Positions 10,497 to 37,055 are shown, numbered from the stretch's first letter. The stretch: DNA of 64,000 nucleotides from Torpedo marmorata (GCA_977017645.1 OZ360236.1:37944001-38008000); one strand, 5' to 3'. The notes: a model not told the origin generated them from the letters alone. Translations and numbers: made by a program.

Positions 10497-10661
<165 letters not shown>

Positions 10662-12447
10662 TAATTTTGATACCAAACAATTGCCTAGAAATTGGAATTC
10701 GCTCCCTTTTGGTGCACTAAACATGCCTAATTTACACTTCTATTTATTGAAAAAAAAAATCCAAATCTTTACAAAATCATGAAATGTTGTGTCTGATGTC
10801 CTACACACAAATTCAGGCTCTAAAAGGGAATTGCAGTAATTCCCTTCAGGACCTCTGTGGAGGGTTTATGACTGTCATTATCAATATTGCACCATGAAGT
10901 GAGTCGGTGATTAAAGAAATATTCCAATGGCAGCCGTAGCACAGTGACAGGTTGGCTGTCAATATTTATGAAACTGACCACTAGCCAAAGTCAAATGCCT
11001 CGGGTAAATTGTGCTCAGAAGTGTTTTGGTAAATTTCTTTATGTTTGCTATTCAAGCGAAAACTATTGCTAACATAATCTAGCGTGCATCTGTGCAAACA
11101 TCCAAATATACTTAATTTGATCTAGTGTTGCTTGAGTGCTAATTTCATTTCTATTGTCATTCCTCTACCAACATCAGAGCTACTTCACATGTAATGAGCC
11201 TTGGATACATCACTTTTTTAGAAACACACTGCATCCAATTTCCTAACTTAAAAATAAAACAGTTCTGTTATGTGATGAAACAAAAACATAGGGTTACGTT
11301 TACATATCAGAGCATTCCAAATGTTCTGATTCATACCATTCTAATGCGCAGAATTATGAATGGGAAAGTGGTACACTAAAATGTAACATGTTGCTTGACA
11401 AGACACTGAAAAAGTACTTTTGTTATCATTCTTTCTGAGCCAGTTGCTGCACTGTTTCAGTTGAATCCAGATGAAGGGAATTCTAACAGAATAATAACTT
11501 CTGCTGTAAAGCACGAATATCTGCAGACACCGTGGTTGAAGTAAAAACACAATGCTGCTCAAGCCCGAAGTGTTGGTTATGTATCTTTATCTTTGCTATA
11601 TAAAGGACACTGTTTGACCTGCTGAGTTTCTCCAGCATTGTGTTTTTACTAATAACTTCTGCTGCCATCTAGTGGCACAAAGAATTAACTCTGTAAACCT
11701 TACTCTTGAAGAGCGGTTCAGGCCCGAAACGTCGGTAATATATCTTTACCTCCTATGGACGCTGCGAGACCGGATGAGTTCCTCCAGCATTTCTGTGTGT
11801 TTTAACTCTGTAAACCACATGACTAAAGAGCAAAAAAACAATCTGCTGAAGGAACAGTGGGAGAAAAATAACTGTTGATGTTTCGGGCCAGAACCCTTTA
11901 TCAAGAGTGAGAGTGCAGACAGCAGTTAGCTAGTACAATGAGGTCAGGGTAGGAGGGGTGAGACAGGGGCCAGTAGGGAATTAGTGAACAAGGGAGGGGT
12001 GAAGTATGATGGACAAAGTGCCAGACAAAGGGGGAGAGAGGCAAGAGGACCAAGGAGGTCGGGTCGAGGACGATGAGTCAGATGGCGGGGGAGCGTGATG
12101 AATGGGGGCAAAGGCTGCCAATGATGGAATCTGATAAGAAGAGGTGGCAATAGTGGTATAATGAGAGACCAGGTAAATGACACTCTAATCAGCAATTCCT
12201 TACAAGATTCCAGCTTTCTGCTCCTCACATACATTGAGAGGGTCACTAAAACTGCCTTCTCAAGCTCACTATTCAATTCTCCAAGGAATTCCCCAATTTA
12301 TGAAGGTGCTAATGGCAGTGAGAGCCTGTGGTTTGTTCAGTACCAATGATGTTATTATCTGGTTCTAATTCAAACTGACAAAAGCAGAACAGGTTCCAAG
12401 GTTAAAATTCTACTTGCCAAGCATTCCTTCAAACATGACAGTTTGAA

Positions 12448-12929
12448 TTTTCTGCTACCTCCTTAAATAGTGGGGTGACATTTGCGATTTTCCAATCCTC
12501 CGGGACCATGCCAGAATCTATTGATTCCTGAAAGATCATTACCAATGTCTCCACAATCTCTAGAGCTACTGCTTTTAGAACCTGAAGGTGCAATCCATCT
12601 GGTCTGGGAGACTTATCTACCCTTAGATCATTCAGCTTTCTGAGTACCTTCTCCCTTGAAATAGTTGCTGCACTCACTTCCCTTCCCTGATATCGTTGGA
12701 CAGCCGGCACACTGCTAATGTCTTCCACAGTGCAGACTGATGCAAAATACTCATTTAGCTCCTCTGCCACCTCCTTGTTTTCCATTATTATTTCTCCAGC
12801 ATCATTTTTATAGTGGTCCTATGTCTACTCTCACCTTTCTTTTACTCCTTGTATACTTGAAGAAGCTTTTTGTATCCTCTTTCATATTATTTGCTCGCCT
12901 GTGGAGGCAGAAGATGACGACCTTTCAGG
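12448..12929 (-). repeat. Inverted duplicate of 15772-16252 (CR1 5' junction plus flank)
   Basis: Reverse complement of 15772-16252, with about 2 differences seen by eye. Confidence 0.92.
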
Positions 12930-13096
12930 GTAACTCATTCCAAGCAGAGGTGCACATGCCAACACGTTTTAGGGATCTGAGGGATTGGATGCACTTTGTA
13001 TTCAACAGCCATAAGCTGGTGTGTCTCATGCCGTCTCATTCATATTCATGAAGTTATCCATCTTCATCAAAAAAGGCATTTATTTATGTCCAACAC

Positions 13097-13300
13097 TATT
13101 ACAGCGTCAGCGACCAGGGATCGAATCCGGCGCTGTCTGTAAGTAGTTTATACGTTCTCCCTGTGTCTGTGTGGGTTTCCTTCAGGCCCTCCGGTTTCCT
13201 CACCCGCTTCAAAACGTACGGGGGTTGCAGGTTAATTGGGGTATTTGGGCAGCACGGGCTCGTGGGCTGGAAGGGCCTGTTAAATGCGTAACATTTAAAA
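13097..13300 (+). mobile_element. tRNA-derived SINE, V-SINE-like
   Basis: gggatcgaatccgg B-box-like motif and ctccggtttcctc core. Confidence 0.65.
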
Positions 13301-13492
13301 TTTAATAAGCTGAATAACTCCTCCCACACACACTAATCGGTTCACCTAGTTTGCTTGTTTTTTTCACTTTTCCCTTCTGCCTTTATCCTTCACTACCTGG
13401 TTCCATCTGCCCATCATCCCCTTCCCACCTGGTTCCACTTATCACCTATCAGCCTCTGTCCTACCCCCTCCCTCGTACTGCTGTGTACTGTA

Positions 13493-15715
13493 TTGAGAAG
13501 TAAAACACGAAAATCTGTAGACACCGTGGTTGAAGTAAAAAACACAAATGCTGGAGAAACTCAGCAGGTCAAACAGTGTCTTTTATGTAGCAAAGGTAGA
13601 AATACATGACCGATGTTTCGGGCTTGAGCCCTTCATCAAAGTATGAGAAAATGCCGGCAGGCGTCCGAACAAAGGAGTGAGGGGGGAAGGGGGATGGCAA
13701 AGGCAGGAGATGATAGGTGGAGAAAGGAGGGAGGGGACAGCAGCAAAGAGGGGGAGGAGGGATGGCTGGGTGGGTGGAAAAAAACAGGAAGGACAGGTGA
13801 GAGGGGGGAGGGGAAGGGAACGACAAGCAGGTTTAGTGGAAAGCAGAAAAGTCAATGTTAATGCCATCTGGCTGGAGAGTGCCGAGACGGAATATGAGAT
13901 GTTGTTCCTCCAATTGGGGGTAGTCTGGGTGGGATAGTACATGAGGCCATGGACAGACATGTGAGTGTGGGAGTGTGACCCGGAATTGAAATGGTTGGCT
14001 ACTGGGAGGTCGCTGTTGTTGCGGACGGAGAGGAGGTGCTCAGCAAAGCGGTCTCCCAATCTACGACCGGTCTCTCCAATGTATAGAAATCCACAAAGGG
14101 AGCACCGGATGCAGTAAATAAGTTATCTGGATGTACAAGTGAAGTGTAGTTTCACTTGGAAGGCCTGTTTGGGGCCCTGGACCGTGGTGAGGGGGGAGGT
14201 GTGGGCGCAGGTGTTGCACCTCCTGCGGGCACAGGGGAAGGTTCCGGGGGTGCGATGGGTGGGGAGGGATGAGTGCACGAGTGAATCGCGGAGGGAGCGG
14301 TCCCTACAGAAGGCCGAGAGGGGAGGAGAAGGAAAAATGTGTCTGGTGGTGGGATCCTGTAGTAAGTGCCGGAAATTCCGGCGGATAATGTGTTGGATGC
14401 GGAGGCTGGTGGGGTGGTAGGTGAGGATGAGGGGGATTCTATGTTTGTTGCGTCTGGGGGCAGAGGGGGCCAGGGCAGATGAGCGGGAAATGGAGGAGAT
14501 GCGGGTGAGGGCTGAGTTGATGGTGGTGGAGGGGAAGCCACGTTTGTGGAAAAAGGCAGACATTTCAGAAGATCTGGAGTGGAACACCTCATCTTGGGAA
14601 CAGATGCGGCGGAGGCGCAGAAATTGAGAGAAGGGGATGGAGTCCTTGCAGGGGACAGGGTGTGAGGATGTGTAGTCCAGATAGTTGTGGGAGTTGGAGG
14701 GTTTGTAGTAAATGTCGGTGGAAAGCTTGTCTCCCGAGATGGAGACAGAGAGATCCAGGAAGGGGAGAGTGTTATCGGAGATGGACCAGGTGAGTTTGAG
14801 ATCGTGGTGAAAGTTGGATGCAAAGTGGATGAAGTTGACAAGCTCATGGCGGGTGCATAAGGCAGCCCCGATGTAGTCGTCAATATACCAGAGGAAGAGA
14901 TGAGGGGTCTTGCCTGTGTAGGCTTGCAGCATGGATTGCTCCACAAAGCCCACAAACAGGAAGGCGTAGCTGGGACGCATGTGGGTACCCATGGCTACTC
15001 CTTTGATTTGGAGGAAGTGGGATGAGTTGAATGAGAAATTATTGAGAGTGAGGACAAGTTCTGCCAGGCGGAGGAGGGTGGTGGTAGAGGGTGACTGGTC
15101 GGGTCTTTGGTGCAGGAAGAAGCGAAGTGCTTTCAGACCTTCTGTGTGGGGGATAGAGGTATAAAGGGATTGGACATCCATGGTGAAGATGATGCGGTCC
15201 GGTTCAGGGAATCTGAAGTCATTGAGGAGATGGAGGGCATGTGACGTGTCGTGGATGTAGGTGGGGAGGGATTGGACCAGGGGAGAAAAGATGGAGTCAA
15301 GGTAAGATGAAACTAGTTCGGTGGGGCAGGAGCAGGCAGAAACAATGGGTCGGCCCGGATGGTTGGGTTTGTGTATCTTGGGTAGAAGGTAGAAACAGGC
15401 AGTGCGGGGGTGGGGGAGAATGAGGTTGGTGGCCGTGGAGGGGAGGTGACCGTAGGTGATGAGGTCGGAGATGGTGTTGGAGATAGTGGCGTGATGTGCA
15501 GTGGTGGGGTCCTGTGGGAGGGGTCGGTAGGAGGAGGTGTCTGAGAGATGTCGACTGGCCTCGGCAAGATAGAGGTCAGTGCGCCAGACCACAACCGCAC
15601 CGCCCTTGTCTGCGGGATTGATGGTGAGGTTGGGATTGTTGCGGAGAGAGTGGAGGGCAGAGCGTTCTGAGGAGGTGAGGTTGGAATACGAGAGGGGGGT
15701 GGTGAAGTTGAGACG
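13493..15715 (-). mobile_element. 5'-truncated Penelope-like element (Neptune type)
   Basis: RT (ADKGG, KIHK, YIDD), CxxxxCxxC linker and GIY-YIG domain interrupted by a stop at 14123; 3' pLTR region present. TSD gtgtactgta at 13483-13492 and 15716-15725. Confidence 0.9.
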
Positions 15716-15802
15716 GTGTACTGTACTGGCTTCCTTTCCTCTTCCCTCTCCGTCCTGATGCAAGGTCTTAACCTGAAAGGTCATCATCTTCTGCCTCCAC
15801 AG

Positions 15803-17540
15803 GCGAGCAAATAATATGAAAGAGGATACAAAAAGCTTCTTCAAGTATACAAGGAGTAAAAGAAAGGTGAGAGTAGACATAGGACCACTATAAAAATGAT
15901 GCTGGAGAAATAATAATGGAAAACAAGGAGGTGGCAGAGGAGCTAAATGAGTATTTTGCATCAGTCTGCACTGTGGAAGACATTAGCAGTGTGCCGGCTG
16001 TCCAACGATATCAGGGAAGGGAAGTGAGTGCAGCAACTATTTCAAGGAGAAGGTACTCAGAAAGCTGAATGATCTAAGGGTAGATAAGTCTCCCAGACCA
16101 GATGGATTGCACCTTCAGGTTCTAAAAGCAGTAGCTCTAGAGATTGTGGAGACATTGGTAATGATCTTTCAGGAATCAATAGATTCTGGCATGGTCCCGG
16201 AGGACTGGAAAATCGCAAATGTCACCCCACTATTTAAGGAGGTAGCAGAAAAGAAATTATAAACCAGTTAGCCTGACATCCGTGGTTGGAAAGATGTTAG
16301 AGTCAATTGTCAAGGATGAGGTTGCGGAGTACAGAGGCACATGACAAGAATGGCCAAAGCCAACATGGTTTCCTTAAGGGAAAATCTTGCTTGACAAACC
16401 TACTGGAATTCTTTGAAGAAGTGCCCGAGCAGGCTAGATAAAGGATGCTGTGTATTTGAATTTTCAGAAGGCCTTTGACAAGGTGCCGCACATGAGGCTA
16501 CTTAACAAGATAAGAGCCCATGGTATAACAGGAAACATGCTAGCGTGGGTAGAGCATTGCTGATTGGCAGGAGGCAGAGAATCTGAATACAGGGATGATA
16601 TTCTGGTTGGCTGCCAGTTGCTAGTGGTGTTCCACAGGGATCGGTGTTGGGGACGCTTCTTTTTATGATGTATATCAATGATTATGGAATGATGGCCACA
16701 AAGATTGCAGATGATACGAAGGTAGGTGGAGGAGCTGGTAGTGTTGAGGAAACAGACAGAAATAAACGGGCAGACTATTTTCTAAATGGGGAGAAGATTG
16801 AAAATTCCCAGATGCAAATGGACCTGGGAGTCCTCTTTCAGGACACCCTGTAGGTAAACTTCCAGGTTGAGTCAGTGGTGAAGAAGGCAAATGCAATGGC
16901 GGCATTTATTTCAAGAGGAATAGAAAATAAGAGCAGGGATGTGATGTTGAGGCTTTATAAAGGAACTGGTGAGACCTCACTTGAGTATTGTGAGCAGTAT
17001 TGGGCTCCTCATTTAAGAACGGATGTGCTGACGTTAGAGAGGATTCAGAGGAGCTTCATAAGGATGATTCAGGGAATGAAAGGGTTATCATACGAGGAAC
17101 ATTTGACGGCTCTTGGCCCGTACTCGTTAGAATTTAGGAGAATTAGGGGGGGATCTCATTGAAACATTTCAAATGTTGAAAAGTATGGACAGATTAGATG
17201 TAGAAAGGTTGTCTCGCATGGTGGGAGAGTTGAGGACAAGTGGGTACCACTTCAGGATTGAAGGCATTAACTAAGAAGAGAGGTGCGGAGGGATTTCTTT
17301 AACTGGAGGGTGGTGAATCTGTGGAATTTGTTGCCACAGGTGGTTGTGGAGGCCAAGTCATTGGGTGTATTTAAGGCAGTGATTGATAGGTACTTGATTA
17401 GCCAGGGCATCAAAGGTTATGGGAGGAAGGCCGGGTAGTGGGGCTGAGTGGGAAAATGGATCAGCTTATGACTGAATGGCAGGGCAGACTCAATGGGCTG
17501 AATGGCCTATTCTGCTCCTATGTCTTATGGTCTTATGGTG
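15803..17540 (+). mobile_element. 5'-truncated CR1 LINE, degenerate
   Basis: PEDWKIANVTPLFK, ADDTK and LEYCEQYWAPH motifs; 3' end tctgctcctatgtcttatggtcttatgg. Confidence 0.88.
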
Positions 17541-18433
17541 TTGTTTGCTAGATCATCCGAGATGTCCTCCTTCAAAAAAACACCATTAACTCTGCCCTCA
17601 CCCACATATCCTCCATTAAACCCACACATCTACCCTGGCCCTCTCCGCCCCCACGTGCAACAAGGACTGGACTCCCCTTGTCCTCAGCTACCACTCCACC
17701 AGCCTCCGCATCCAACACATCATCCTCCACTATTTCTGCCACCTTCTACGTGATCCTACCAGCAGACACATTTTCCCTTCTCCCCTCTCCGCTTTACGCA
17801 GGGACCGCTCCCTCCATGACTCCCTTGTACCCTCCTCCCTTCCAACCAATCGCCCCCTTGACACCTACCCCTAAGACTGCAGGAGGTGCTGCACTTACGC
17901 CAACACCTCCTCCCTCAACACCATTTGGAGCCCCAAGCAACGCTTCACGTGAACCTGCAGGAGTCATCTACTGTATCCGATGCTCCCCTTGTGGTCTCCT
18001 CTACATTAGAGAGACTGGACGCAGACTGGGAGATTGTTTCATTGAGCGCATCGGCTCAAAAGCGGGGATCTCTCAGTGGCCACACATTTCAATTCCCCAC
18101 CCCATTCCCTTGCTGACATGTCTGTCCATGGTCTCATGCATTACCAGACTGAGACCACCCACAAGTTGGAGAAACAATACCTCAATATTCTGTCTGGACA
18201 CCCTCCAACTGGATGGCATTAACTGACTTCTCTGGTTTCCATTAGCCCCCCCCCCCCACCACCCCATCTATCCCTATGTCTCCTTTCCTCTAGCTCTATC
18301 TCTCTCTCTCTCTTCTGTTTTTCCTCTGTCTCCTTTACCCAGCTCTGCATTCACAGAGCCAAACACCCACCTCCCCCAATCTATTCTCACCTTTCCTCTC
18401 TCCTCTCCTTATATCCATATCCAATTAACACCT
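17541..18433 (+). mobile_element. Older degenerate PLE 3' fragment (continues at 23899-24130)
   Basis: ORF 17678-18226 contains a decayed GIY-YIG (VIYCIRC...LYIRETGRRLGD); split by the palindromic insertion. Confidence 0.8.
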
Positions 18434-18719
18434 AGTAAAAAACACAAAAGCTGGAGAACTCAGCAGGTCAAACAGTGTCTTTTATGTAGCAAAGGTAGAA
18501 ATACATAACCGACGTTTCGGGCTTGAGCCCTTCATCAAAGTATGAGAAAATGCCGGCAGGCGTCCGAACAAAGGAGTGAGGGGGGAAGGGAGGTGGCAAA
18601 GGCAGGAGATGATAGGTGGAGAAAGGAGGGAGGGGACAGCAGCAAAGAGGGGGAGGAGGGATGGCTGGGTGGGTGGAAAAAAACAGGTGAGGGGGGAGGG
18701 GAAGGGAACAACAAACAGG

Positions 18720-21225
18720 TTAGTGGAAAGCAGAAAAGTCAATGTTAATGCCATCTGGCTGGAGAGTGCCGAGACGGAATATGAGATGTTGTTCCTCCAA
18801 TTTGCGGGTAGTCTGGGTGGGATAGTACATGAGGCCATGGACAGACATGTGAACGTGGGAGTGTGACCCAGAATTGAAATGGTTGGCTACTGGGAGGTCG
18901 CTGTTGTTGCGGACGGAGAGGAGGTGCTCAGCAAAGCGGTCTCCCAATCTACGACCGGTCTCTCCAATGTATAGAAAGCCACAAAGGGAGCACCGGATGC
19001 AGTAGATAAGTCCTTTGGATGTACAAGTGAAGTGTAGTTTCACTTGGAAGGCCTGTTTGGGGCCCTGGACCGTGGTGAGGGGGGAGGTGTGGGCGCAGGT
19101 GTTGCACCTCCTGCGGGCACAGGGGAAGGTTCCGGGGGTGCGATGGGTGGGGAGGGACGAGTGCACGAGTGAATCGCGGAGGGAGCGGTCCCTGCGGAAG
19201 GCCGAGAGGGGAGGAGAAGGAAAAATGTGTCTGGTGGTGGGATCCTGCAGCAAGTGCCGGAAATTCCGGCGGATAATGTGTTGGACGCGGAGGCTGGTGG
19301 GGTGGTAGGTGAGGATGAGGGGTACTCTATGTTTGTTGCGTCTGGGGGCAGAGGGGGCCAGGGCAGATGAGCGGGAAATGGAGGAGATGCGGGTGAGGGC
19401 TGAGTTGATGGTGGTGGAAGGGAAGCCACGTTTGTGGAAAAAGGCAGACATTTCAGAAGATCTGGAGTGGAACACCTCATCTTGGGAACAGATGTGGCGG
19501 AGGCGGAGAAATTGAGAGAAGGGGATGGAGTCCTTGCAGGGGACAGGGTGTGAGGTTGTGTAGTCCAGATAGTTGTGGGAGTTGGAGGGTTTGTAGTAAA
19601 TGTCGGTGGAAAGCTTGTCTCCCGAGATGGAGACAGAGAGATCCAGGAAGGGGAGAGTGTTATCGGAGATGGACCAGGTGAGTTTGAGATCGTGGTGAAA
19701 GTTGGATGCGAAGTGGATGAAGTTGACAAGCTCATCGTGGGTGCATGAGGCAGCCCCGATGTAGTCGTCGATATACCGGAGGAAGAGATGAGGGGTCTTG
19801 CCTGTGTAGGCTTGCAGCATAGATTGCTCCACAAAGCCCACAAACAGGCAGGCGTAGCTGGGACCCATGCGGGTACCCATGGCTACTCCTTTGATTTGGA
19901 GGAAGTGGGATGAGTTGAAGGAGAAGTTATTGAGAGTGAGGACAAGTTCTGCCAGGCGGAGGAGGGTGGTAGTAGAGGGTGACTGGTCGGGTCTTTGGTC
20001 CAGGAAGAAGCGAAGTGCTTTCAGACCTTCTGTGTGGGGGATAGAGGTATAAAGGGATTGGACATCCATGGTGAAGATGATGCGGTCCGGTTCAGGGAAT
20101 CTGAAGTCATTCAGGAGATGGAGGGCATGTGAGGTGTCGCGGATGTAGGTGGGGAGGGATTGGACCAGGGGAGAAAAGATGGAGTCAAGGTAAGATGAAA
20201 CTAGTTCGGTGGGGCAGGAGCAGGCAGAAACAATGGGTCTGCCCGGATGGTTGGGTTTGTGTATCTTGGGTAGAAGGTAGAAACGGGCAGTGCGGGGGTG
20301 GGGGAGAATGAGGTTGGTGGCCATGGAGGGGAGGTGACCATAGGTGATGAGGTCGGAGATGGTGTTGGAGACAGTGGCTTGATGTGCTGTGGTGGGGTCC
20401 TGTGGGAGGGGTAGGTAGGAGGAGGTGTCTGAGAGTTGTCGACTGGCCTCGGCAAGGTAGAGGTCAGTGCGCCAGACCACAACCGCACCGCCCTTGTCTG
20501 CGGGTTTGATGGTGAGGTTGGGATTGTTGCGGAGAGAGTGGAGGGCAGAGCGTTCTGAGGAAGTGAGGTTGGAATACGAGAGGGGGGTGGTGAAGTTGAG
20601 ACGGTTGATGTCTTGGCGGCAGTTGGAAATAAAAAGGTCCAGAGCGGGCAGCTGGCCCGGGCGGGGTGTCCAGGAAGAGGAAGAAGGCTTGAAGCGGGAG
20701 AAAGGGTCTAGGGTGGGGGGTGGAGAATCACGGTCATGGAAGTGAGCACGGAGGCGGAGGCGACGGAAGAAGAGTTCAGCATCATGGCGTGCGCGGAACT
20801 CGTTGAGGTGTGGGCGGAGGGGGACGAAGGTGAGGCCTCTACTGAGGACGGAGCGCTCCGTCTCAGAGAGGGGAAGGTCGGAGGGGATAGTAAAAACCAA
20901 GCAGGGGTTAGAGTGGGGATCGGTGTCGTGGAGGGTGTTGGGGGGAGGGGGAGGGTTGGGGGGGTCAGAGGGGGGAGGTGGAGGGTGGGGGAGGTTGGAG
21001 GGAGTCGGAGGGGGGAGGTGGGGGGTAGGAGGGTGGGAGAGGGGGGTAGGGAGGGTAGCCAGAGAGAGGGGGGGAATGGAGGTACGGGAAGGGATGAGGT
21101 CTGAGGGTTGGGGAGGAGAGTGGGGCAGAGAGGGGGAGATGGGGGTGGAGTAGGGAGAGGTGCAGGAGGAGAGGGAAGGAGTAGTGAGGGGGATAGGTAA
21201 GTGGGATATTGTTGCAGGATGAGGA
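18720..21225 (-). CDS. PLE RT + GIY-YIG endonuclease, left arm (open frame, 5' truncated)
   Basis: Uninterrupted frame with a Pro-rich N-terminus, LSRGLTFVP, ADKGG, GVAMG, RYIDD, CARRRCNTC and LIYCIRC...YIGETGR. No natural ATG identified. Confidence 0.88.
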
Positions 21226-21387
21226 CTCCCTACCCCCCTCTCCCACCCTCCTACCTCCCCTACCCCCCACCTCCCCCCTCCGACTCCCTCCAACCTCCCC
21301 CACCCTCCACCTCCCCCCTCTGACCCCCCCAACCCTCCCCCTCCCCCCAACACCCTCCACGACACCGATCCCCACTCTAACCCCTGC

Positions 21388-23568
21388 TTGGTTTTTACTA
21401 TCCCCTCCGACCTTCCCCTCTCTGAGACGGAGCGCTCCGTCCTCAGTAGAGGCCTCACCTTCGTCCCCCTCCGCCCACACCTCAACGAGTTCCGCGCACG
21501 CCATGATGCTGAACTCTTCTTCCGTCGCCTCCGCCTCCGTGCTCACTTCCATGACCGTGATTCTCCACCCCCCACCCTAGACCCTTTCTCCCGCTTCAAG
21601 CCTTCTTCCTCTTCCTGGACACCCCGCCCGGGCCAGCTGCCCGCTCTGGACCTTTTTATTTCCAACGGCCGCCGAGACATCAACCGTCTCAACTTCACCA
21701 CCCCCCTCTCGTATTCCAACCTCACTTCCTCAGAACGCTCTGCCCTCCACTCTCTCCGCAACAATCCCAACCTCACCATCAAACCCGCAGACAAGGGCGG
21801 TGCGGTTGTGGTCTGGCGCACTGACCTCTACCTTGCCGAGGCCAGTCGACAACTCTCAGACACCTCCTCCTACCTACCCCTCCCACAGGACCCCACCACA
21901 GCACATCAAGCCACTGTCTCCAACACCATCTCCGACCTCAGCACCTACGGTCACCTCCCCTCCATGGCCACCAACCTCATTCTCCCCCACCCCCGCACTG
22001 CCCGTTTCTACCTTCTACCCAAGATACACAAACCCAACCATCCGGGCAGACCCATTGTTTCTGCCTGCTCCTGCCCCACCGAACTAGTTTCATCTTACCT
22101 TGACTCCATCTTTTCTCCCCTGGTCCAATCCCTCCCCACCTACATCCGCGACACCTCACATGCCCTCCATCTCCTGAATGACTTCAGATTCCCTGAACCG
22201 GACCGCATCATCTTCACCATGGATGTCCAATCCCTTTATACCTCTATCCCCCACACAGAAGGTCTGAAAGCACTTCGCTTCTTCCTGGACCAAAGACCCG
22301 ACCAGTCACCCTCTACTACCACCCTCCTCCGCCTGGCAGAACTTGTCCTCACTCTCAATAACTTCTCCTTCAACTCATCCCACTTCCTCCAAATCAAAGG
22401 AGTAGCCATGGGTACCCGCATGGGTCCCAGCTACGCCTGCCTGTTTGTGGGCTTTGTGGAGCAATCTATGCTGCAAACCTACACAGGCAAGACCCCTCAT
22501 CTCTTCCTCCGGTATATCGACGACTACATCGGGGCTGCCTCATGCACCCATGATGAGCTTGTCAACTTCATCCACTTCGCATCCAACTTTCACCACGATC
22601 TCAAACTCACCTGGTCCATCTCCGATAACACTCTCCCCTTCCTGGATCTCTCTGTCTCCATCTCGGGAGACAAGCTTTCCACCGACATTTACTACAAACC
22701 CTCCAACTCCCACAACTATCTGGACTACACATCCTCACACCCTGTCCCCTGCAAGGACTCCATCCCCTTCTCTCAATTTCTCCGCCTCCGCCGCATCTGT
22801 TCCCAAGATGAGGTGTTCCACTCCAGATCTTCTGAAATGTCTGCCTTTTTCCACAAACGTGGCTTCCCTTCCACCACCATCAACTCAGCCCTCACCCGCA
22901 TCTCCTCCATTTCCCGCTCATCTGCCCTGGCCCCCTCTGCCCCCAGACGCAACAAACATAGAGTACCCCTCATCCTCACCTACCACCCCACCAGCCTCCG
23001 CGTCCAACACATTATCCGCCGGAATTTCCGGCACTTGCTGCAGGATCCCACCACCAGACACATTTTTCCTTCTCCTCCCCTCTCGGCCTTCCGCAGGGAC
23101 CGCTCCCTCCGCGATTCACTCGTGCACTCGTCCCTCCCCACCCATCGCACCCCCGGAACCTTCCCCTGTGCCCGCAGGAGGTGCAACACCTGCGCCCACA
23201 CCTCCCCCCTCACCACGGTCCAGGGCCCCAAACAGGCCTTCCAAGTGAAACTACACTTCACTTGTACATCCAAAGGACTTATCTACTGCATCCGGTGCTC
23301 CCTTTGTGGCTTTCTATACATTGGAGAGACCGGTCGTAGATTGGGAGACCGCTTTGCTGAGCACCTCCTCTCCGTCCGCAACAACAGCGACCTCCCAGTA
23401 GCCAACCATTTCAATTCTGGGTCACACTCCCACGCTCACATGTCTGTCCATGGCCTCATGTACTATCCCACCCAGACTACCCGCAAATTGGAGGAACAAC
23501 ATCTCATATTCCGTCTCGGCACTCTCCAGCCAGATGGCATTAACATTGACTTTTCTGCTTTCCACTAA
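21388..23568 (+). CDS. PLE RT + GIY-YIG endonuclease, right arm (open frame, 5' truncated)
   Basis: 726-aa frame with the same motifs; only a handful of amino-acid differences from the left arm. Confidence 0.9.
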   Translation: MVFTIPSDLPLSETERSVLSRGLTFVPLRPHLNEFRARHDAELFFRRLRLRAHFHDRDSPPPTLDPFSRFKPSSSSWTPRPGQLPALDLFISNGRRDINRLNFTTPLSYSNLTSSERSALHSLRNNPNLTIKPADKGGAVVVWRTDLYLAEASRQLSDTSSYLPLPQDPTTAHQATVSNTISDLSTYGHLPSMATNLILPHPRTARFYLLPKIHKPNHPGRPIVSACSCPTELVSSYLDSIFSPLVQSLPTYIRDTSHALHLLNDFRFPEPDRIIFTMDVQSLYTSIPHTEGLKALRFFLDQRPDQSPSTTTLLRLAELVLTLNNFSFNSSHFLQIKGVAMGTRMGPSYACLFVGFVEQSMLQTYTGKTPHLFLRYIDDYIGAASCTHDELVNFIHFASNFHHDLKLTWSISDNTLPFLDLSVSISGDKLSTDIYYKPSNSHNYLDYTSSHPVPCKDSIPFSQFLRLRRICSQDEVFHSRSSEMSAFFHKRGFPSTTINSALTRISSISRSSALAPSAPRRNKHRVPLILTYHPTSLRVQHIIRRNFRHLLQDPTTRHIFPSPPLSAFRRDRSLRDSLVHSSLPTHRTPGTFPCARRRCNTCAHTSPLTTVQGPKQAFQVKLHFTCTSKGLIYCIRCSLCGFLYIGETGRRLGDRFAEHLLSVRNNSDLPVANHFNSGSHSHAHMSVHGLMYYPTQTTRKLEEQHLIFRLGTLQPDGINIDFSAFH

Positions 23569-23742
23569 CCTGTTTGTTGTTCCCTTCCCCTCCCCCCTCA
23601 CCTGTTTTTTTCCACCCACCCAGCCATCCCTCCTCCCCCTCTTTGCTGCTGTCCCCTCCCTCCTTTCTCCACCTATCATCTCCTGCCTTTGCCACCTCCC
23701 TTCCCCCCTCACTCCTTTGTTCGGACGCCTGCCGGCATTTTC

Positions 23743-23785
23743 TCATACTTTGATGAAGGGCTCAAGCCCGAAACGTCGGTTATGT
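23743..23785 (+). ncRNA. Minimal hammerhead-ribozyme-like motif in the PLE pLTR
   Basis: TTGATGA-A-GGGCT-CA-AGCCC-GAAA-CGTC. PLEs are known to carry minimal type I hammerheads. Variant core (U at C3, extra A before stem II). Mirror copy on the minus strand at 18511-18538. Confidence 0.7.
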
Positions 23786-24224
23786 ATTTCTACCTTTCCT
23801 ACATAAAAGACATTGTTTGACCTGCTGAGTTCTCCAGCTTTTGTGTTTTTTACTACATTATTACGGTGTCTACAGATTTTCGTGTTTACTTTTTACTTTC
23901 CAATTAACACCTTTTGTCTGTTGGTCTGTCCTCCTTCCCCTGCCCTTTCTTTCATTCTCCTCCAGCCTTTTAATTCAGGTGCCTGCTTGCCTTTTACTCA
24001 TACCTTGAAGAAGGGCTCAGAGCAGGAACAATTGTTATATATCTTTACCTCCTATGGACGCTGTGAGACCTGCTGAGTATTTCTGTGTTTTTACTACAAT
24101 CACAGCGTCTGCAGACTTTTGTGATCCACTCTTATGGTGTTGCTTGACCAGCTGAGTTCTACCAGTGTCATGTTTTTGATAGATAATAAAAGTTTAACTC
24201 AAAAAGCAGAACAAAAACACAAAA

Positions 24225-24624
24225 CCTAATATACCATTGGGCACTCTCCAACCAGATGGCATTAACATCGACTTCTCCAGTTTCTGTTAGGCCCTCCTCT
24301 GTCTCTCTCTCTCTCTCTGTCTATCTGTCGGTCTCTCTCTCTCTTTCTCTCTCTCTCTCTTTCCTATCCCTCTGTCTCCTTTCCTCCAGCTCCCTACCCC
24401 CTTCCCTCACCATTCAGAGAACTACCCCCTCCCCCTATCAATTCTCAGCTTTTTTCTCTTCTGTCCTCCCACCCATACTACCTATGGCCTCTTGCCTGTT
24501 GGCCTGTGCTCCACACCACCCCACCCCTCGCCACTTCTTCCCTCCTCACCCTACCTTTTTATTCAGGCACCTGCCTGCAATCTGCTCATTCCTTGATGAA
24601 GGCTCAGCCCCCAAAACATTGGTT
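24225..24624 (+). mobile_element. Old PLE 3' end/pLTR fragment interrupted by the Gypsy element (resumes 29344-29420)
   Basis: LGTLQPDGINIDFS-type end, CT-rich UTR and a decayed hammerhead motif at about 24591-24620. Confidence 0.7.
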
Positions 24625-27600
24625 TGATATACCTATCAATAACTGACGCGAGTCTAGAAGTGCAGGAATTAACAGGCTTTTATTAACAGAATCAAAGCCA
24701 GGGCTAGCTATGCCTTGACCTGATGATCCCTGCTGGATTGTCCAGGAACTGGGGAGGAGTTGCTGGCTCAAGGCCTTTATTCCAGGTAAAGGGGGAGGGG
24801 TCACCGGGACAGACAGACAGGTCATGGTCATACCTGCCTCAGGCCACAATACATACAAAGTGGTTTACCACATTCACCCCTTCTTTTAGAACAAGTCCGA
24901 CGGGGGGGTGAAGTGGATACTGTAAAAAGAAAAAAATACAAAATACATAGATAATATACAGTTTTTACAGGTCGAGTTTCGCCGGCGGCCGGATTTGCCG
25001 CCGTGACCTGCGTAGCGCCAGCGGTGATGGTAGTGGTTGTGGAATGAGGGTACGAGTGAGAAAACGTGATACCTGCGGAGATGGTTGTGGCTGTGGAATG
25101 GGAGTAGGTACAGTAGGGTGGATCTGGGGCTGGTTCGCCTCCTGCCTGGCTAGTGGCCAGACCAGCTGTGACGGAGACAACGTCGTGCTGGGAGGCGGAT
25201 GGGCCGGAGGGGGCAGCTGCGACCCGGCGTTTCCGCTGTCGGGGACCTCTTCAGACGCTCCTGCAGGCGCCAGGTCCCGTATTGACACCGTGTCTTCCCG
25301 CCCGTCGGGGAGAACCACGAATGCGTACTGCGGGTTTGCATGGATCAGCTGCACCCTCTCGACTAAGGGCTCGTACTTGCTACTCCGAAGATGTTTGCGG
25401 AGTAGCACCGGCCCCGGGGACGTCAGCCAGGCAGGGAGTGTAGTCCCGGTGGTCGATTTTCTGGGGAAGGAAAAGATACGTTCGTGAGGGGTAGTGTTAG
25501 TGGCGGTACATAAGAGAGATCGTATAGAGTGGAGGGCGTCCGGGAGAACCTCCTGCCAGCGAGCCACTGGCCACCCTTTTGCTTTCAGGGCCAGTAGTGT
25601 CGCTGTCCATACTGTGGCGTTCTCCCTCTCCACCTGTCCGTTCCCCCGTGGGTTGTACCCCGTGGTCCTACTGGTAGCGATGCCTCGGGTCTGCAAGTGC
25701 TGTCGCAGCTCCCCGCTCATGAACGCGGACCCCCGGTCGCTGTGGACATAGTTGGGGAACCCGAACACGGTGAAAACCTGGTGGAGAGCCTTGATAGCCG
25801 CCGCCGCCGAGGTATCTGGGCAGGGGATGGCAAAGGGGAACCGCGAGTACTCATCGATGATGTTGAGGAAGTACACATTGCGGTTCGTGGAGGGGAGGGG
25901 GCCCTTGAAGTCTATACTGAGACGTTCGAACGGGCGGGTGGCTTTGACCAGCTGTGCTCTGTCGGGGCGGTAGTACTGCGGTTTGCATTCCGCACAGACT
26001 CGGCAGCTGCTGGTCATGGTCTTGACCTCATCCAGGGAGAAAGGCAGGTTCCGTGCTTTAATGAAGTGAAACAGCCTGGTAACTCCTGGGTGGCAGAGGT
26101 CATTATGTAGGGAGTATAACCGGTCGATCTGCGCGCTGGCGCACGATCCCCGGGATAGAGTGTCAGGGGGCTCGTTGAGCTTCCCGGGCCGGTAAAGGAT
26201 GTCGTAATTGTAGGTGGAGAGTTCTATTCTCCACCTCATGATTTTGTCGTTTTTAATTTTACCCCGCTGCTGGCTGTTAAACATGAAAGCGACGGAGCGC
26301 TGGTCCGTCAGCAGGGTAAAATGTTTTCCGGCGAGATAGTGCCTCCAGTGCCGGACAGCCTCGACAATGGCCTGGGCCTCTTTCTCTACCGCGGAGTGCC
26401 GAATTTCGGGGCCTTGAAGGGTGCGGGAGAAAAACGCTACCGGTCTTCCCGCCTGGTTGAGGGTAGCAGCCAGTGCGAAGTCCGATGCGTCACTCTCTAC
26501 CTGAAAAGGTTCCGACTCGTCCACTGCGTGCATCGCTGCTCGGGCGATGTCCCCTTTTATGAGGTCGAAAGCCTCACGTGCCTCCGCTGCCAGGGGAAAC
26601 TTGGTGGACTTGACGAGGGGTCGGGCTTTGTCCGAGTAGTTTGGGACCCATTGTGCATAATAGGAAAAGAACCCGAGGCATCGTTTAAGTGCTTTGGGGG
26701 TAACGGGGATCGGAAGTTCCAACAGGGGGCGCATGCGGTCGGGGTCGGGTCCAATCACCCCGTTTTCCACGACGCACCCCAGGATAGCGAGTCGGGTAGT
26801 CCCGAACACGCATTTCTCCTTGTTATATGTGAGGTTCAGCGTCTCGGCCGCCTGTAAGAACTTCCGAAGGTTCCTATCGTGATCCTGGCGATCATGACCA
26901 CAAATGGTGATGTCGTCCAGGTACGGGAAGGTGGCAGTGAGCTTGAACTGGTCAATGATCCTGTCCATCTCCCTTTGGAACACGGATACCCCATTTGTTA
27001 CCCCGAAGGGAACGCGCAGAAAATGGAATAATCTGCCGTCCGCCTCGAAAGCGGTGTATACTCGGTCCTCCCGGCGGATTGGGAGCTGATGGTAAGCCGA
27101 CTTAAGGTCGATGGTGGAGAACACTTTATATTGAGCAATCTGGTTGACCATATCCGCGATCTTCGGCAGCGGATAGGCGTCCAGTTGCGTGAACCGGTTG
27201 ATGGTCTGGCTATAGTCCACCACCATCCGGCTCTTAGCCCCGTTCTTTACCACGACTACCTGTGCTCTCCAGGGGCTATTACTGGGTGCAATGATCCCTT
27301 CCCCCAGTAAACGCTGCACCTCCGCCTTAATAAACGCCCTGTCCCCTGTACTGTATCGCCTACTTTTAGTTGCGATGGGCTTACAGTCAGGGGTAAGGTT
27401 GGCGAAGAGTGGCGGGGGTTGGGTCTTTAGTGTGGAGAGACCACAGGTAGTCTGGGGCGTATTAATTAAATACTGGGGGTTAGTCACAACGATTGGGGGG
27501 TGGGGCCCATCATAGTGCATGGTGACGCTACGCAGGTGGCTTTGGAAGTCCAATCCCAGCAATACAGGAGCACACAAACGGGGCATGATTAGCAATGAAA

Positions 27601-29343
27601 ACTCTCGATATTCCGTGCCCTGTACCACTATATTCGCCACACAACCCCCCCGGATGTCTGTTGTGTGCGTTCCAGACGCCATGGCCACCCTCTGGCTTAC
27701 CGGTACAATGGTGAGGCCACAGCGCTGGGCAGTGTCTGGATGGATAAAACTTTCTGTACTGCCTGTGTCGAACAGGCAGGTGGTCTTATGCCCCTCAACG
27801 AGAATGTCCATCATGGATCTGGACAGTTGATGGGGCGCGCTCTGGTCCAGCGTCACGGATGCCAGGGTCGAGACGAAGTCTTGATCTTGATCCGGTGGCA
27901 GCTCCCGTAGCTCGTACGTGTCGCTACGAGAGGGTGGAGTCGGAAGTGCTGGAAGTGCTGCGGTGAGGTTATAAAATGGCCGCGCCGGAAATGTAGAGAT
28001 CGGAAGTGTGGACCAAGATGGCCGCCTCCAGTCCTCACACGAGGTCTCAGCAGGAAGTGATGTCATGTAAGATGGCCGCCTCCTCCCGTCGCACGTGGCG
28101 CTGCTGGAAAACGGAAGTGCTGCGCGCTGTGATGGCTGCCTCCAGACCTCACACGAGGTCTCCGCCGGAAGTGGAGTCGAGTAAGATGGCCGCTCCCGTA
28201 CCTCGCACGCGGCGCTGCTCGGACCCGTGCGCGACTTGGAGCGGCAGACCTTAGCATAGTGGCCTTTCTTGCCACAGCTAGAACAAGTCGCGTCTCGGGC
28301 CGGGTAGCGCTTGCGCGGGTGCTTGTCGAGCCCGCAGAAGTAGCACTTCTCGGGCTCCCGGGTGATAGCGGCGGCGGTTAACTCACGGGTAGCGGCGGGC
28401 TCTCGGGCAGCGGCGGCAGCGGCCAACTCACGGATAGCGTCGGCGGCGGCGAGCGGGTCCCGGTAGACGGCAGCAGCCGTCGCGTTGCTTGTAGGGCTGA
28501 CGGTTGGGGCGATCCAAGAAGCAGGCTGCGCCTGCATAGCGTCGGCGTTCTTTAGGGCTGAGTCCAGATTCAGTATGTTCTGGACAGTCGATTTCAGGGT
28601 CAGATCGGCGTGTTCCAGCAATCGCTGGCGGATGTAGCCCGACCTGATCCCTCTTATGATAGTGTCCCTTGCCAGTATCTCGGAGTGTTGCTCAGCCGTC
28701 AGGGCTCGACAGTCACACGCTCGCACCAGGAGCATCACGTCCTGGATATATTCGGAGACCGACTCTCCGGGTCGCTGGTACCGCTGCGATATCCAGTGCC
28801 TTGCGAAAATCTCGTTCGCAGGCGTCAGGTACAGCGTTCGGAGGGCGACCAAGGCATCATCAAAAGTCCTACAGTCTCTGACGGCGCCATACACTCGCTT
28901 GCTTACCCTGGACATGAGGATATCGAGTTTCTGCTCATCAGTAGCTGCTCCGGACGACCTCATGTAGGCTGTGAAGCAGCGTTGCCAAAGTTCGAAATCG
29001 CTTGCAGCGTCTTGGGCCAGGGGGTCGATGTATAGCTTGTCTGGCTTTAACAAATTCTCCATTGATTCGTATTTTGTTGAAACTGTTAATAAAATTGATA
29101 TACCTATCAATAACTGACGCGAGTCTAGAAGTGCAGGAATTAACAGGCTTTTATTAACAGAATCAAAGCCAGGGCTAGCTATGCCTTGACCTGATGATCC
29201 CTGCTGGATTGTCCCGGAACTGGGGAGGAGTTGCTGGCTCAAGGCCTTTATTCCAGGTAAAGGGGGAGGGGTCACTGGGACAGACAGACAGGTCATGGTC
29301 ATACCTGCCTCAGGCCACAATACATACAAAGTGGTTTACCACA
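24625..29343 (-). mobile_element. Intact Gypsy/Ty3 LTR retrotransposon
   Basis: 248-bp TG...CA LTRs at 24625-24872 and 29096-29343 with about 2 differences. TSD tggtt at 24620-24624 and 29344-29348. PPT aaaagaaggggtgaa next to the 3' LTR. Confidence 0.96.
24965..29062 (-). CDS. Gypsy Gag-Pol polyprotein (Gag zinc knuckles, PR, RT, RNase H, IN)
   Basis: Single open frame with CSSCGKKGHYAKVC, LFDTGS, YLDD, ESDASD, HNDLCH..CRVC and a DDE integrase. Start placed at MENLLK, the first ATG after the LTR. Confidence 0.94.
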   Translation of the reverse strand: MENLLKPDKLYIDPLAQDAASDFELWQRCFTAYMRSSGAATDEQKLDILMSRVSKRVYGAVRDCRTFDDALVALRTLYLTPANEIFARHWISQRYQRPGESVSEYIQDVMLLVRACDCRALTAEQHSEILARDTIIRGIRSGYIRQRLLEHADLTLKSTVQNILNLDSALKNADAMQAQPASWIAPTVSPTSNATAAAVYRDPLAAADAIRELAAAAAAREPAATRELTAAAITREPEKCYFCGLDKHPRKRYPARDATCSSCGKKGHYAKVCRSKSRTGPSSAACEVRERPSYSTPLPAETSCEVWRQPSQRAALPFSSSATCDGRRRPSYMTSLPAETSCEDWRRPSWSTLPISTFPARPFYNLTAALPALPTPPSRSDTYELRELPPDQDQDFVSTLASVTLDQSAPHQLSRSMMDILVEGHKTTCLFDTGSTESFIHPDTAQRCGLTIVPVSQRVAMASGTHTTDIRGGCVANIVVQGTEYREFSLLIMPRLCAPVLLGLDFQSHLRSVTMHYDGPHPPIVVTNPQYLINTPQTTCGLSTLKTQPPPLFANLTPDCKPIATKSRRYSTGDRAFIKAEVQRLLGEGIIAPSNSPWRAQVVVVKNGAKSRMVVDYSQTINRFTQLDAYPLPKIADMVNQIAQYKVFSTIDLKSAYHQLPIRREDRVYTAFEADGRLFHFLRVPFGVTNGVSVFQREMDRIIDQFKLTATFPYLDDITICGHDRQDHDRNLRKFLQAAETLNLTYNKEKCVFGTTRLAILGCVVENGVIGPDPDRMRPLLELPIPVTPKALKRCLGFFSYYAQWVPNYSDKARPLVKSTKFPLAAEAREAFDLIKGDIARAAMHAVDESEPFQVESDASDFALAATLNQAGRPVAFFSRTLQGPEIRHSAVEKEAQAIVEAVRHWRHYLAGKHFTLLTDQRSVAFMFNSQQRGKIKNDKIMRWRIELSTYNYDILYRPGKLNEPPDTLSRGSCASAQIDRLYSLHNDLCHPGVTRLFHFIKARNLPFSLDEVKTMTSSCRVCAECKPQYYRPDRAQLVKATRPFERLSIDFKGPLPSTNRNVYFLNIIDEYSRFPFAIPCPDTSAAAAIKALHQVFTVFGFPNYVHSDRGSAFMSGELRQHLQTRGIATSRTTGYNPRGNGQVERENATVWTATLLALKAKGWPVARWQEVLPDALHSIRSLLCTATNTTPHERIFSFPRKSTTGTTLPAWLTSPGPVLLRKHLRSSKYEPLVERVQLIHANPQYAFVVLPDGREDTVSIRDLAPAGASEEVPDSGNAGSQLPPPAHPPPSTTLSPSQLVWPLARQEANQPQIHPTVPTPIPQPQPSPQVSRFLTRTLIPQPLPSPLALRRSRRQIRPPAKLDL

Positions 29344-29607
29344 TGGTTATATAATCTTTGCTTCCTATGGACGCAACGGGACCTGCTGGGTTTCTCCAGC
29401 ACTTTTGTGTATTACACGACAACAGGAAGTGAAGCTTTACAAAATAGCAACTGCGCTGATGAAAGATTTTTAACAAAGAATGGTTAGCATTTGTCACATA
29501 AATTTCATTCATAATATGTTGAGATTTCCAGCTGATTATTTTTCTCCTTTATAAGTAAGCAAACATATAATTGGAAGGAAATGTAGGTCACAGACTTCCC
29601 ATTATTA

Positions 29608-30043
29608 TTATTTTTTTATATTATTTTATTTAAACTTTTAAATCACAAAATACATAAAATAAAATATAAAATTATCAAAATACATGTGATACATTTTCAT
29701 CCCCCCACCCTCCCTCCCCTCCCCAACCCCCCCATCCCCACTAATCTAGTAAAATTAAAATAAAAGTAAAAATAGAAAAAAGAAAGAAAGAAAAAGATTG
29801 AATAAGGAGAATACCATCTATAAACTAATTCTATTATGGAGGTCAAATATGCCAGTAGATCCGATATCCAGAGATCTTCAAATCCTTAAACCCACAGCTC
29901 TCATATATGGGCTCCAAATTTTCAAGAAGAAATGATATTTATTACGTAAATTATAAGTAATTTTTTCAAGTGGTATACACGAACGAAGTTCTGCATGCCA
30001 TCTTTCTAATCCTAAATCTAAGTCAGATTTCCAAGTAATAGCA
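29608..30043 (-). mobile_element. 5'-truncated L1 3' end
   Basis: Matches the ORF2 C-terminus and 3' UTR of the other L1 copies. TSD acagacttcccattatta at 29590-29607 and 30044-30061. Confidence 0.9.
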
Positions 30044-30186
30044 ACAGACTTCCCATTATTACACGTATACCGTAGTTAAGGTGCTCTATGAATTTTTATA
30101 TTTACATGACTAAGCATTATGACAACTATTGTGGGGACTTCCACAACGTGTACTTACTAACTTGATTGTGTTTTCTTGTCTCTTAG

Positions 30187-30365
30187 GTCCAAGTTGCAGG
30201 TCGATTTGTAACTTTTCTATTTGATCCTCATTCATTTGATTCAGTTGTATCAGAATCCAGTGCAAAATTGGACTTTAGAAAGTATTCATTAGCTTTAATG
30301 GATAGAATCTTCAACCTTCAGCTTCCAAACTATGATCACCATGAAGAGAAGACTTTGATGAAAAT
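30187..30365 (+). CDS. PTGIS: Prostacyclin synthase coding exon 3
   Basis: cttag|...|gtgagt, 179 bp. Encodes VQVAGRFVTFLFDPHSFDSVVSESSAKLDFRKYSLALMDRIFNLQLPNYDHHEEKTLMK; phase matches exon 2. Confidence 0.92.
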
Positions 30366-30559
30366 GTGAGTACTCTGCATTTAACTAAGATATATCCTGA
30401 AGTGTACTACAAAAAAATGATTAATTTTCTGAACAAGCCTTCTCCAAGAAATTCTTCTGAAGAACTGTAAAGCCACACTTTCTTGACAATATAAAGCATT
30501 CAAAAACATTAAATTTAAAAAAGTATTAAAACTGGGATTTCTTCTCAATGGGGGCTGAG

Positions 30560-30915: not shown

Positions 30916-31715
30916 CTGAACTTCATGAAGATGAATTAAAATATTTTAAATTCATTGTATTTGTTTTTAATTATTTGTTGCTGTACTGAGGCCACCAATT
31001 ATTTATTTTTATATTACCGTAACTATTCCGAAGGTTTTAAATGCTTTGCTGTTCTTTATAGGTTAGTTGTGTCCACATCTTTTGTTTCAAATACGTCAAA
31101 TGCTGCGGACAGAACTAGGACAAGTGCCTAGAAACTGGATTTCGCCCTGGTACATTGAACGAGTGCGATATTGTGCCGACACACAAAAGCTGACCTGTGT
31201 GTTTCTCTGCAGATTGCTGAAGAGATCGCAGTTACTGCATATTTATTACTAGGAATCATGGGAAGCAGGTCACAGCCTAATATTACTCTCTCCATGGTGG
31301 CTTCAGTACAGCCACAGAAAAGGTTGAGGCAAGAAAGATGGGATACATCTTCAATATCTGTGGCCACAACCCCCTACAATTTCTGAGCAGTTCAAATCCC
31401 AGGCCATGAGTTGCCCCAGATCACTCTGCTGGGACTGCTGTGTGAGCCTCTACAGTGTATAGCCACAACAAATACTGAGACCCAGTAATGTCACATGACA
31501 TATACAGAGCATTAAAAACTCAGGCTGGTAACAGCAGATAGTTAAATGTTGATATTCTTGTAGACTTTCTGCAGGATCTGATTCTTCTTTTTCAAAAAGA
31601 AGGCTGTAGACTGCACATAGTCAATAGAGTTATAGAGTCATACATCACAAGCATCACCTATGGCCTACCATATCTATACCAACCATTGAGTACCTATAAA
31701 TATATATATATTTAT

Positions 31716-34180: not shown

Positions 34181-34209
34181 AAATATATATATATATTTAT
34201 TTATTTTTT

Positions 34210-36200: not shown

Positions 36201-37055
36201 TTATTATCCCAATTTTAGATCCAATTTGCCAACTTCCCTTGAGCCTAAAGGTTCCAAGATTTGGATCAGCCTTCTCTGAAACAAGATCCCTGCTGAAATC
36301 ATCAATTACACTGCCCTCATCCTGTTACATCTTTTACATATTCATTCAAATAGTTCAGATGAAATCTCCCACTGACAAGATTTATTGCTGCCCTTCCAAA
36401 TGTGTGTTATTATTCCAATTTGTAAAGGTAAAGCAGAGGTGAGCATCACATGCATTGTGGTCATTAAGAGCACAAGTGTGATCAGAAAATGTCAGCCATA
36501 TGCCAATGCAAATTGTGCCTTGTCCAATTTTGCGATGGGCAGAATTTCAACAGGAAATGGCTTTGTTGTGTTAAAAGTTGCATTGAAGCATTTGTGTGTG
36601 AGTTTTCACATTTAAAAAAAAAAGTTTATTTGAGTCAATTTCTCAGTCAAAGTAAAGTAGTTTATCACAATCACATATAAAGTCACTTTGATTTATCTTT
36701 GCACTGTGTCAGCAGAAGAAACCAGAATGGGGACCTTCAGATACCAATTTCTATGGAAGGTGGGGTTGTCAAGGGGAATCCACCCATGGGGGGAACTGTT
36801 ACCATGTTCAATGTAACCTTGCAGAGGAAAGCAAACTTTGTCATAGGGTGATACGGGATCAAAGTTCTGGTAGAGAAATGAATGATCTTCACAGAGGCGT
36901 AAGGTCCCTGAGGAGGGAGAAACATTAACACTATAAATCGGGAATCAGGGAGAGAAGATGGTCAACATAATTGGAATGGGGACCGAGGCATTTAGTGAAT
37001 GCAAATGTCAGCTATTCATTTGAATGCTAATATTGCACATTTTTGTTTACGACAG

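Follow-up and report, generated by a model that had tools for sequence, protein, structure and literature searches.

In Penelope-like elements that carry an endonuclease (EN+ PLEs), an adjacent inverted copy truncated at its 5' end, together with a one-sided tail of 30–40 nt and a target-site duplication (TSD), is called typical (Craig et al. 2021, PMC8557442). In Adineta vaga, Penelope insertions have TSDs of 8–10 bp, an optional tail, and a tendency to form long tandem or inverted structures (Arkhipova et al. 2013, PMC3846280), and in vitro the protein of an anole PLE, Poseidon of Anolis carolinensis, nicks and extends both strands, begins reverse transcription at two adjacent sites that bound the tail (with a start at +111 to +118), and has a predicted dimeric form (Frangieh et al. 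2024, PMC11167929). Here we describe a locus in a 64-kb stretch of the genome of Torpedo marmorata (OZ360236.1, hereafter the window), where two PLE copies of about 2.6 kb stand head-to-head inside one TSD, within an intron of a PTGIS-like gene. For comparison, in twin priming by L1 elements both target nicks prime reverse transcription and the cDNAs join by microhomology, leaving one TSD and a 5' inversion; the second primer anneals internally, and the inverted and direct parts do not overlap.

The PLE insertion is genuine, arose in a single event, and was dead on arrival; it belongs to the head-to-head type already published, toward the top of the size range. An original prediction made from the sequence had likewise proposed a single insertion event, and this is supported by the one TSD, by lineage-specific letters shared between the arms, and by the collinear host element.

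The insertion and its junction

The longest inverted repeat of the window pairs 18433–21058 with 21230–23855 (99% complementary), and gapped alignment of the arms (18433–21053 to 23855–21226) gives 99.24% identity, with 11 substitutions and one 9-bp indel. This bears out the predicted head-to-head arms of about 2.6 kb, and the predicted spacer of about 170 nt, formed by extra 5' sequence of the left arm, is a loop of 172 nt (21054–21225). The single 14-bp TSD also held up: TCCAATTAACACCT occurs exactly twice in the 64 kb, at 18420–18433 and 23899–23912, with no extension of the match and a composition-based chance of 6.8e-9 per site. All three amino-acid differences named between the arms (ISNCRQ/ISNGRR, QAYT/QTYT, RHIC/RRIC) are present. 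As one family contig (run X3, record 17, depth 3) has the 9 bp that were taken for an insertion near 21255, their in-frame loss from the left arm, near 21029, is the likelier event. At the central junction we found no second TSD and no perfect palindrome, the loop lying there instead. The parts of the insertion are:

18420–18433: left copy of the TSD, 14 bp
18434–21229, minus strand: left arm, a 5'-truncated PLE copy without a tail, extending 176–180 nt further 5' than the right arm
18720–21229, minus strand: open reverse transcriptase (RT)–GIY-YIG frame of the left arm, 836 codons up to the stop, lacking the N-terminal domain and with its first Met at residue 303
21054–21225: unpaired loop, 172 nt, the left arm's extra 5' sequence; read on the sense strand of the element, it is C-rich and codes for proline
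21223–23568, plus strand: open RT–GIY-YIG frame of the right arm, 781 codons, lacking the N-terminal domain and with its first Met at 21964
21226–21229: microhomology of 4 nt (CTCC on plus, GGAG on minus) common to both arms, where the 3' ends of the two cDNAs are predicted to anneal
21226–23898, plus strand: right arm, a 5'-truncated PLE copy with a tail
23569–23854, plus strand: 3' untranslated region (UTR) or pseudo-LTR of the right arm, with a degenerate minimal hammerhead-like motif at about 23742–23785
23855–23898, plus strand: one-sided tail of 44 nt, right arm only, with a short terminal TTTACT tandem repeat
23899–23912: right copy of the TSD, 14 bp

The left arm has 176 nt (176–180) more 5' sequence and the right arm 44 nt more 3' sequence, so neither is a plain copy of the other. 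The predicted cDNA ends, ...ACTCC and ...GGGAG, have four complementary bases. By chance, a 4-nt microhomology is found at 313 of 181,476 pairs of truncation points in the local tract (0.0017) and at 0.0027 over the whole arm, and the left arm stops at one of two GG dinucleotides in a 300-nt tract with 4% G. About 6 nt of the tail are terminal repeat, and the tail boundaries lie at +102 and +146 from an ATG in the hammerhead-like stem. Judged by eye, the hammerhead-like core is minimal, with C3 changed to U and a stem II that folds, a candidate for the hammerhead ribozyme motif that marks the pseudo-LTRs of EN+ PLEs; its mirror copy in the left arm lies near 18500–18545. Rfam gave no match at gathering in the window, and three chance matches at E up to 10 in 23550–24650. 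The TTTACT repeat at the right-arm end (23880–23898) is absent from the neighboring copy, as if reverse transcription had started, slipped, and restarted.

The same layout recurs nearby. Head-to-head pairs account for three of the nine family-type insertion units in the window whose 3' ends were listed, and the two smaller pairs, at 11492–11664 (TSD 15 bp) and 44206–44875 (TSD 13 bp), served as internal controls. Only one arm has a tail in each of the three inverted pairs (3/3), and all three tail-less arms stop at one shared GTGTTTTTACT-like motif. In the palindrome and in the 11492–11664 pair, the arm without a tail is the longer of the two; in the 44206–44875 pair it has 31 nt and the tail arm about 615 nt. 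TSDs of 10–15 bp flank six of the nine units, and none was found for the other three. The EN+ PLE layout of an inverted 5'-truncated copy, a one-sided tail, and a TSD is thus found here, with a tail of 44 nt versus the published 30–40 nt. A partial tandem of two pseudo-LTR fragments, each beginning at the hammerhead-like core, lies at 63688–63856, and no TSD was found around it.

Source of the arms and the way they were joined

Contigs of four sequencing runs (X1, X2, X3, and X6) were compared over 21000–24290; the PLE family is abundant in three of the four runs, with coverage increasing toward the 3' end, and X1 holds 62% of the sampled words. The source test used 30 of 40 listed positions, out of 384 variable positions; of the ten omitted, three lie in the loop, and at seven the other letter is a minority in X1. 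Four of the 30 are arm differences, and in all four the family letter is on the left arm. At no fewer than 21 positions (21 of the other 26), both arms carry a letter unlike that found in at least 80% of the summed X1 family contig depth, and the neighboring copy at 13498–15717 has the family letter at all 15 of these shared-letter positions that it covers. In addition, both arms lack 1 nt at 23566 and 9–11 nt at 23600 that are present in the neighboring copy and in an X3 contig. Divergence between the arms, which the original prediction proposed to set against that of the family, amounts to 9 of 2171 aligned columns, versus 58 and 59 between the arms and the neighboring copy.

Shared coding changes comprise 11 synonymous and 9 non-synonymous ones, where 71% non-synonymous is expected under neutrality (P 0.014), and the arm-specific coding changes comprise 2 and 7 (P 0.48). 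CpG transitions make up 4 of the 11 arm differences, CpG sites being 7.6% of positions (P 0.007). Polarized by the neighboring copy, four differences fall on the left arm and five on the right, and some form close pairs (21667/21674, 21941/21948, 23798/23813; simulations P 0.03 and 0.016, post hoc). Given the shared family-atypical letters, the synonymous-leaning shared changes, and the CpG-rich arm differences, the arms are, on this sequence evidence, from one source lineage, followed by separate decay; the differences between them have the look of neutral decay rich in CpG changes.

If a single target-primed cDNA folds back, it cannot gain a tail missing from its template, and the right end would therefore have been either primed separately on RNA or trimmed from a longer intermediate. 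On balance, we think it probable, with considerable room for doubt, that in one event both target nicks were primed on RNA of one source locus and the cDNA ends annealed by microhomology. The TSD, arms, asymmetry, microhomology, truncation, and shared letters are seen in the sequence; we infer the order of the biochemical steps. The GIY-YIG endonuclease would nick both target strands 14 nt apart, and each 3'-OH would serve as primer for the reverse transcription of sense RNA that came from one source locus. Of the two cDNAs, one would begin at the inner start site (no tail, giving the left arm) and the other 44 nt further 3' (with the tail, giving the right arm); both would run for about 2.6–2.8 kb and stop in the C-rich, proline-coding tract, and their 3' ends would anneal over 4 nt (CTCC:GGAG), mutual extension yielding the head-to-head arms, the loop, and the TSD.

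Two mechanisms had been offered originally, and priming from both nicks is the better of them, whereas fold-back of one cDNA alone cannot account for a tail on the arm with less 5' sequence; we rejected pure fold-back of one target-primed cDNA on this ground. A DNA-level inverted duplication after insertion was also rejected, as a one-sided tail within one TSD would not be expected from it.

Priming from both nicks may have a more specific form, which we put forward tentatively: a dimeric PLE protein might prime both nicks on one RNA (or on neighboring units of one tandem transcript), with one subunit per adjacent start site and the trailing subunit displacing the leading cDNA. If true, this would explain the one-sided tails (3/3 pairs; 0.125 by chance if the sites are independent), the shared source-specific letters, and arm stops within 180 nt of each other. 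It was not found stated in the literature searched, most subscription journals lying outside that search, which also returned no papers on "twin-priming" together with Penelope; a retrozyme preprint has, in the part available, no passage on inverted insertion.

Several points weigh against priming from both nicks on one source RNA. The contrast between shared and arm-specific coding changes is not significant (Fisher P 0.13), the source test draws on 30 of 40 listed rows out of 384 variable positions, X1 may come from a different species, and summed contig depth does not measure copy number. Among the contigs listed from the four runs, none bridges the junction at 21229/21230 or the whole structure. 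The in vitro data come from a Poseidon-clade element, which is another clade, and the available part of PMC11167929 models no inverted arms; Arkhipova et al. interpret such inversions as self-priming on an antisense template (PMC3846280). Finally, the same 4 nt also fit a scheme in which the left cDNA folds back and is joined with a short cDNA that was tail-primed, and one locus cannot separate the two.

This last scheme is the main rival, although we consider it rather unlikely. After 2.8 kb the left cDNA would snap back on its own GGAG (21050–21053) and copy itself, while the second nick would prime a short tail-bearing cDNA, joined by pseudo-LTR homology. The microhomology serves here equally, near-identity and shared rare letters follow without a second long run of reverse transcription, and the greater length of the tail-less arm in the palindrome and in the 11492–11664 pair suits it. 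However, the 44206–44875 pair, with its 31-nt tail-less arm against a tail arm of about 615 nt, needs independent starts, and the 9-bp deletion of the left arm, 20 nt from the right-arm start, is missing from the right arm, so that on this scheme it would have to come from slippage at a later time.

Self-priming on antisense RNA through a hairpin intermediate, with endonuclease trimming of one end to leave the one-sided tail, as proposed by Arkhipova and colleagues, seems to us improbable. It is the published reading of head-to-head junctions (PMC3846280), the tail has been viewed as a product of endonuclease resolution (PMC8557442), and the identical arms and short self-complementary turn that it predicts are both seen. 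Yet both tail boundaries map to in vitro initiation sites of reverse transcription on sense RNA, +102 and +146 being near the reported +111 to +118 (PMC11167929), and the junction has a 172-nt loop rather than a perfect palindrome.

It is very unlikely that two insertions followed one another at one site, whether or not gene conversion later acted between the arms. PLEs can home to their own sequence, insertion of this family into PLE sequence is seen here (in the 3' UTR of an older PLE), and the arm differences are mildly clustered (two pairs within 7 nt, P 0.03, post hoc). Against this, there is no second TSD at the junction, and 21 letters and two UTR deletions are common to the arms and absent from the neighbor and from most family members; the leaning of the shared changes toward synonymous ones fits an active source lineage and not converted decay, and the layout recurs in three of the nine family units of the window. 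An assembly or fold-back read artifact is hardly credible, even though such structures trouble assemblies (PMC8557442) and no listed contig of the four runs spans this one, because the flanks are not mirror images but continue one older element with its own TSD, are collinear with two paralogs in the window, and lie among host exons that are in order, and since a chimeric read would not create CpG-enriched arm differences and a one-sided tail; the start of one X3 contig, at 23899, carries 11 loose letters that look like the left flank, which an uninterrupted paralog would be expected to show.

Coding capacity, host intron, and consequences

Each arm encodes an RT followed by a C-terminal GIY-YIG domain (Pfam RVT_1, E 2.7e-6; GIY-YIG, E 5e-4; both just under the curated cut-offs), and 2459 of 8000 scored candidates are homologs with this layout. 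The best named homologs of the arm protein are from sharks and rays (65–78% identity). The protein alignment shows the CCHH motif with two cysteines between GIY and YIG (GLIYCIRCSLCGFLYIG), a DKG motif (ADKGG), and a GxKF/Y-like motif (RGLTF), all of which are given as EN+ PLE features in PMC8557442. A zinc-finger-like CX2-5CxxC motif, CARRRCNTC (CX4CxxC form), lies in the linker that joins RT to endonuclease; among elements with a C-terminal endonuclease, this linker is assigned to Neptune and Nematis (PMC8557442). By these motifs, the element is a C-terminal-endonuclease PLE of Neptune/Nematis type. No PDB entry matched the PLE protein, a metagenome scan gave 3 distant loci among 117 pattern matches, and a literature search on shark PLEs returned only shark ecology.

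Both frames had been described as intact. They are open from the RT and endonuclease through the stop codon, but both arms are 5'-truncated, with neither an N-terminal domain nor an upstream start codon. In full-length relatives this domain has about 165 aa, and a Pro-rich tract occupies its position in the arms. When 59 relatives of more than 880 aa supplied their first 175 aa as queries, the arms were matched only from residue 152 on (2/59 queries), with two weak matches elsewhere in the window; in 44 relatives longer than 850 aa with a recognizable VxTIP motif, the motif mostly lies 150–200 residues from the start. There is no Met upstream of the RT in either frame, and a 5' pseudo-LTR is absent from both copies. 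The X3 contig of record 17 aligns through 21229 and then has 20 unlike letters, as expected of a truncation point. Arm-specific changes also fall on conserved residues (C149G and I240S in the right arm, S504T and R524H in the left). We rejected the arms as intact active genes for want of the N-terminal domain; judged by what they lack (5' pseudo-LTR and N-terminal domain), both copies are dead on arrival, with neutral decay presumably following.

The palindrome sits between the first two of five collinear PTGIS-like exons on the plus strand (10526–10649, 30187–30366, 37054–37200, about 42770–42930, and 43688–43870), the first of which has prostacyclin synthase as its best PDB match (E 5.6e-17). 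Of six exon-like PTGIS segments, not all were seen, but these five are. The insertion target, like the right-arm tail a point absent from the original prediction, is the 3' UTR of an older PLE, and both palindrome flanks align in order to two paralogs in the window. The surrounding features are:

10650–30186, plus strand: host intron of the PTGIS-like (CYP8A1) gene, 19.5 kb, which holds the palindrome
17531–18419, plus strand: older, interrupted PLE, 5' part, at 73% identity to the arms and with a 13-bp TSD of its own at 17531
23913–24142, plus strand: older, interrupted PLE, 3' part, with pseudo-LTR, tail, and 13-bp TSD at 24130

The same intron holds a young Ty3/Gypsy-type LTR retrotransposon on the minus strand (24624–29344; 250-bp LTRs 99.2% identical; one open frame of 1456 codons with protease, RT, RNase H, and integrase), which interrupts another old PLE 3' end (24219–24623 and 29345–29415). 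A 486-bp inverted duplication of LINE sequence, which we take from its motifs to be CR1-like, brackets the single PLE copy at 13498–15717 (12448–12933 and 15768–16252; 99.2% identical), and no TSD was found flanking it. An AT-rich LINE-like family has several copies in both orientations (2741–5152, 29609–30044, 31714–34187, and 61573–62856), including an RT frame of 633 codons at 31700–33598 and a 436-bp inverted pair (95.6%) that brackets the exon at 30187. Elsewhere in the window, a very recent LTR element has 632-bp direct repeats (48661–49292 and 53840–54471; 100% identical) that enclose two minus-strand frames, of 779 and 349 codons.

A plus-strand transcript would contain a double-stranded RNA stem of 2.6 kb. 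For such an intronic stem, nuclear ADAR would be a more plausible reader than MDA5 or Dicer, which we rejected in that role. Other inverted pairs exist in the same intron, the copy at 13498–15717 and the right arm matching at 96% over 2.2 kb. Arm divergence is 0.42% (95% range 0.21–0.75%). If the arm differences arose in place, the PTGIS intron would have tolerated a 5.5-kb quasi-palindrome for as long as about 3 million generations, given the rate of 7e-10 in the epaulette shark (PMC10587355), a species other than this host; the age is an upper bound if tandem units of the source already differed. Such persistence would argue against strong instability or harm. In eukaryotic cells, spacers of 52 bp and 280 bp largely abolish fork stalling or fragility, according to a review (PMC7999016), and the loop here has 172 nt.

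Comparison with known systems

Like canonical EN+ PLE insertions as described in PMC8557442, this locus has an inverted 5'-truncated copy by the 5' end, flanking inverted repeats, and a tail at one end; unlike them, both copies are cut at nearly the same point, each arm spans RT and endonuclease (2.6 kb), and there is no tandem upstream pseudo-LTR. The earlier remark that inverted PLE copies are usually only short pseudo-LTRs understates the literature, since the same paper calls an inverted 5'-truncated copy of any length typical. With Pen2a_Av and related Penelope elements of Adineta vaga (PMC3846280), it shares the head-to-head inverted copy, a whole unit within one TSD, and insertion into another PLE. 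There, however, the inverted copy is a pseudo-LTR of about 180–210 bp beside a full open reading frame, often with a short junction palindrome, whereas here we find a 172-nt loop, a 4-nt microhomology, and a 14-bp TSD.

Unlike in L1 twin priming, both cDNAs would begin at the 3' end here, duplicating the same 2.6 kb. The likeness to Anolis carolinensis Poseidon in vitro (PMC11167929) lies in two start sites of reverse transcription bounding the tail and the nicking and extension of both strands, both proposed for this locus, in an ATT-containing target, and in an ATG in stem II of a hammerhead or, here, hammerhead-like motif; Poseidon is without the CX2-5CxxC linker present here, and the available part of that paper offers no inverted-arm model. 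The asymmetry and microhomology link the genomic structure to this two-strand, two-start-site chemistry. Because its layout is already known, the locus represents no new kind of element. It is valuable as a specimen for how PLEs make inverted copies, with arms long enough to keep the informative sites that point to a common source; the head-to-head layout is the family's ordinary product, and arm length is the only unusual trait.

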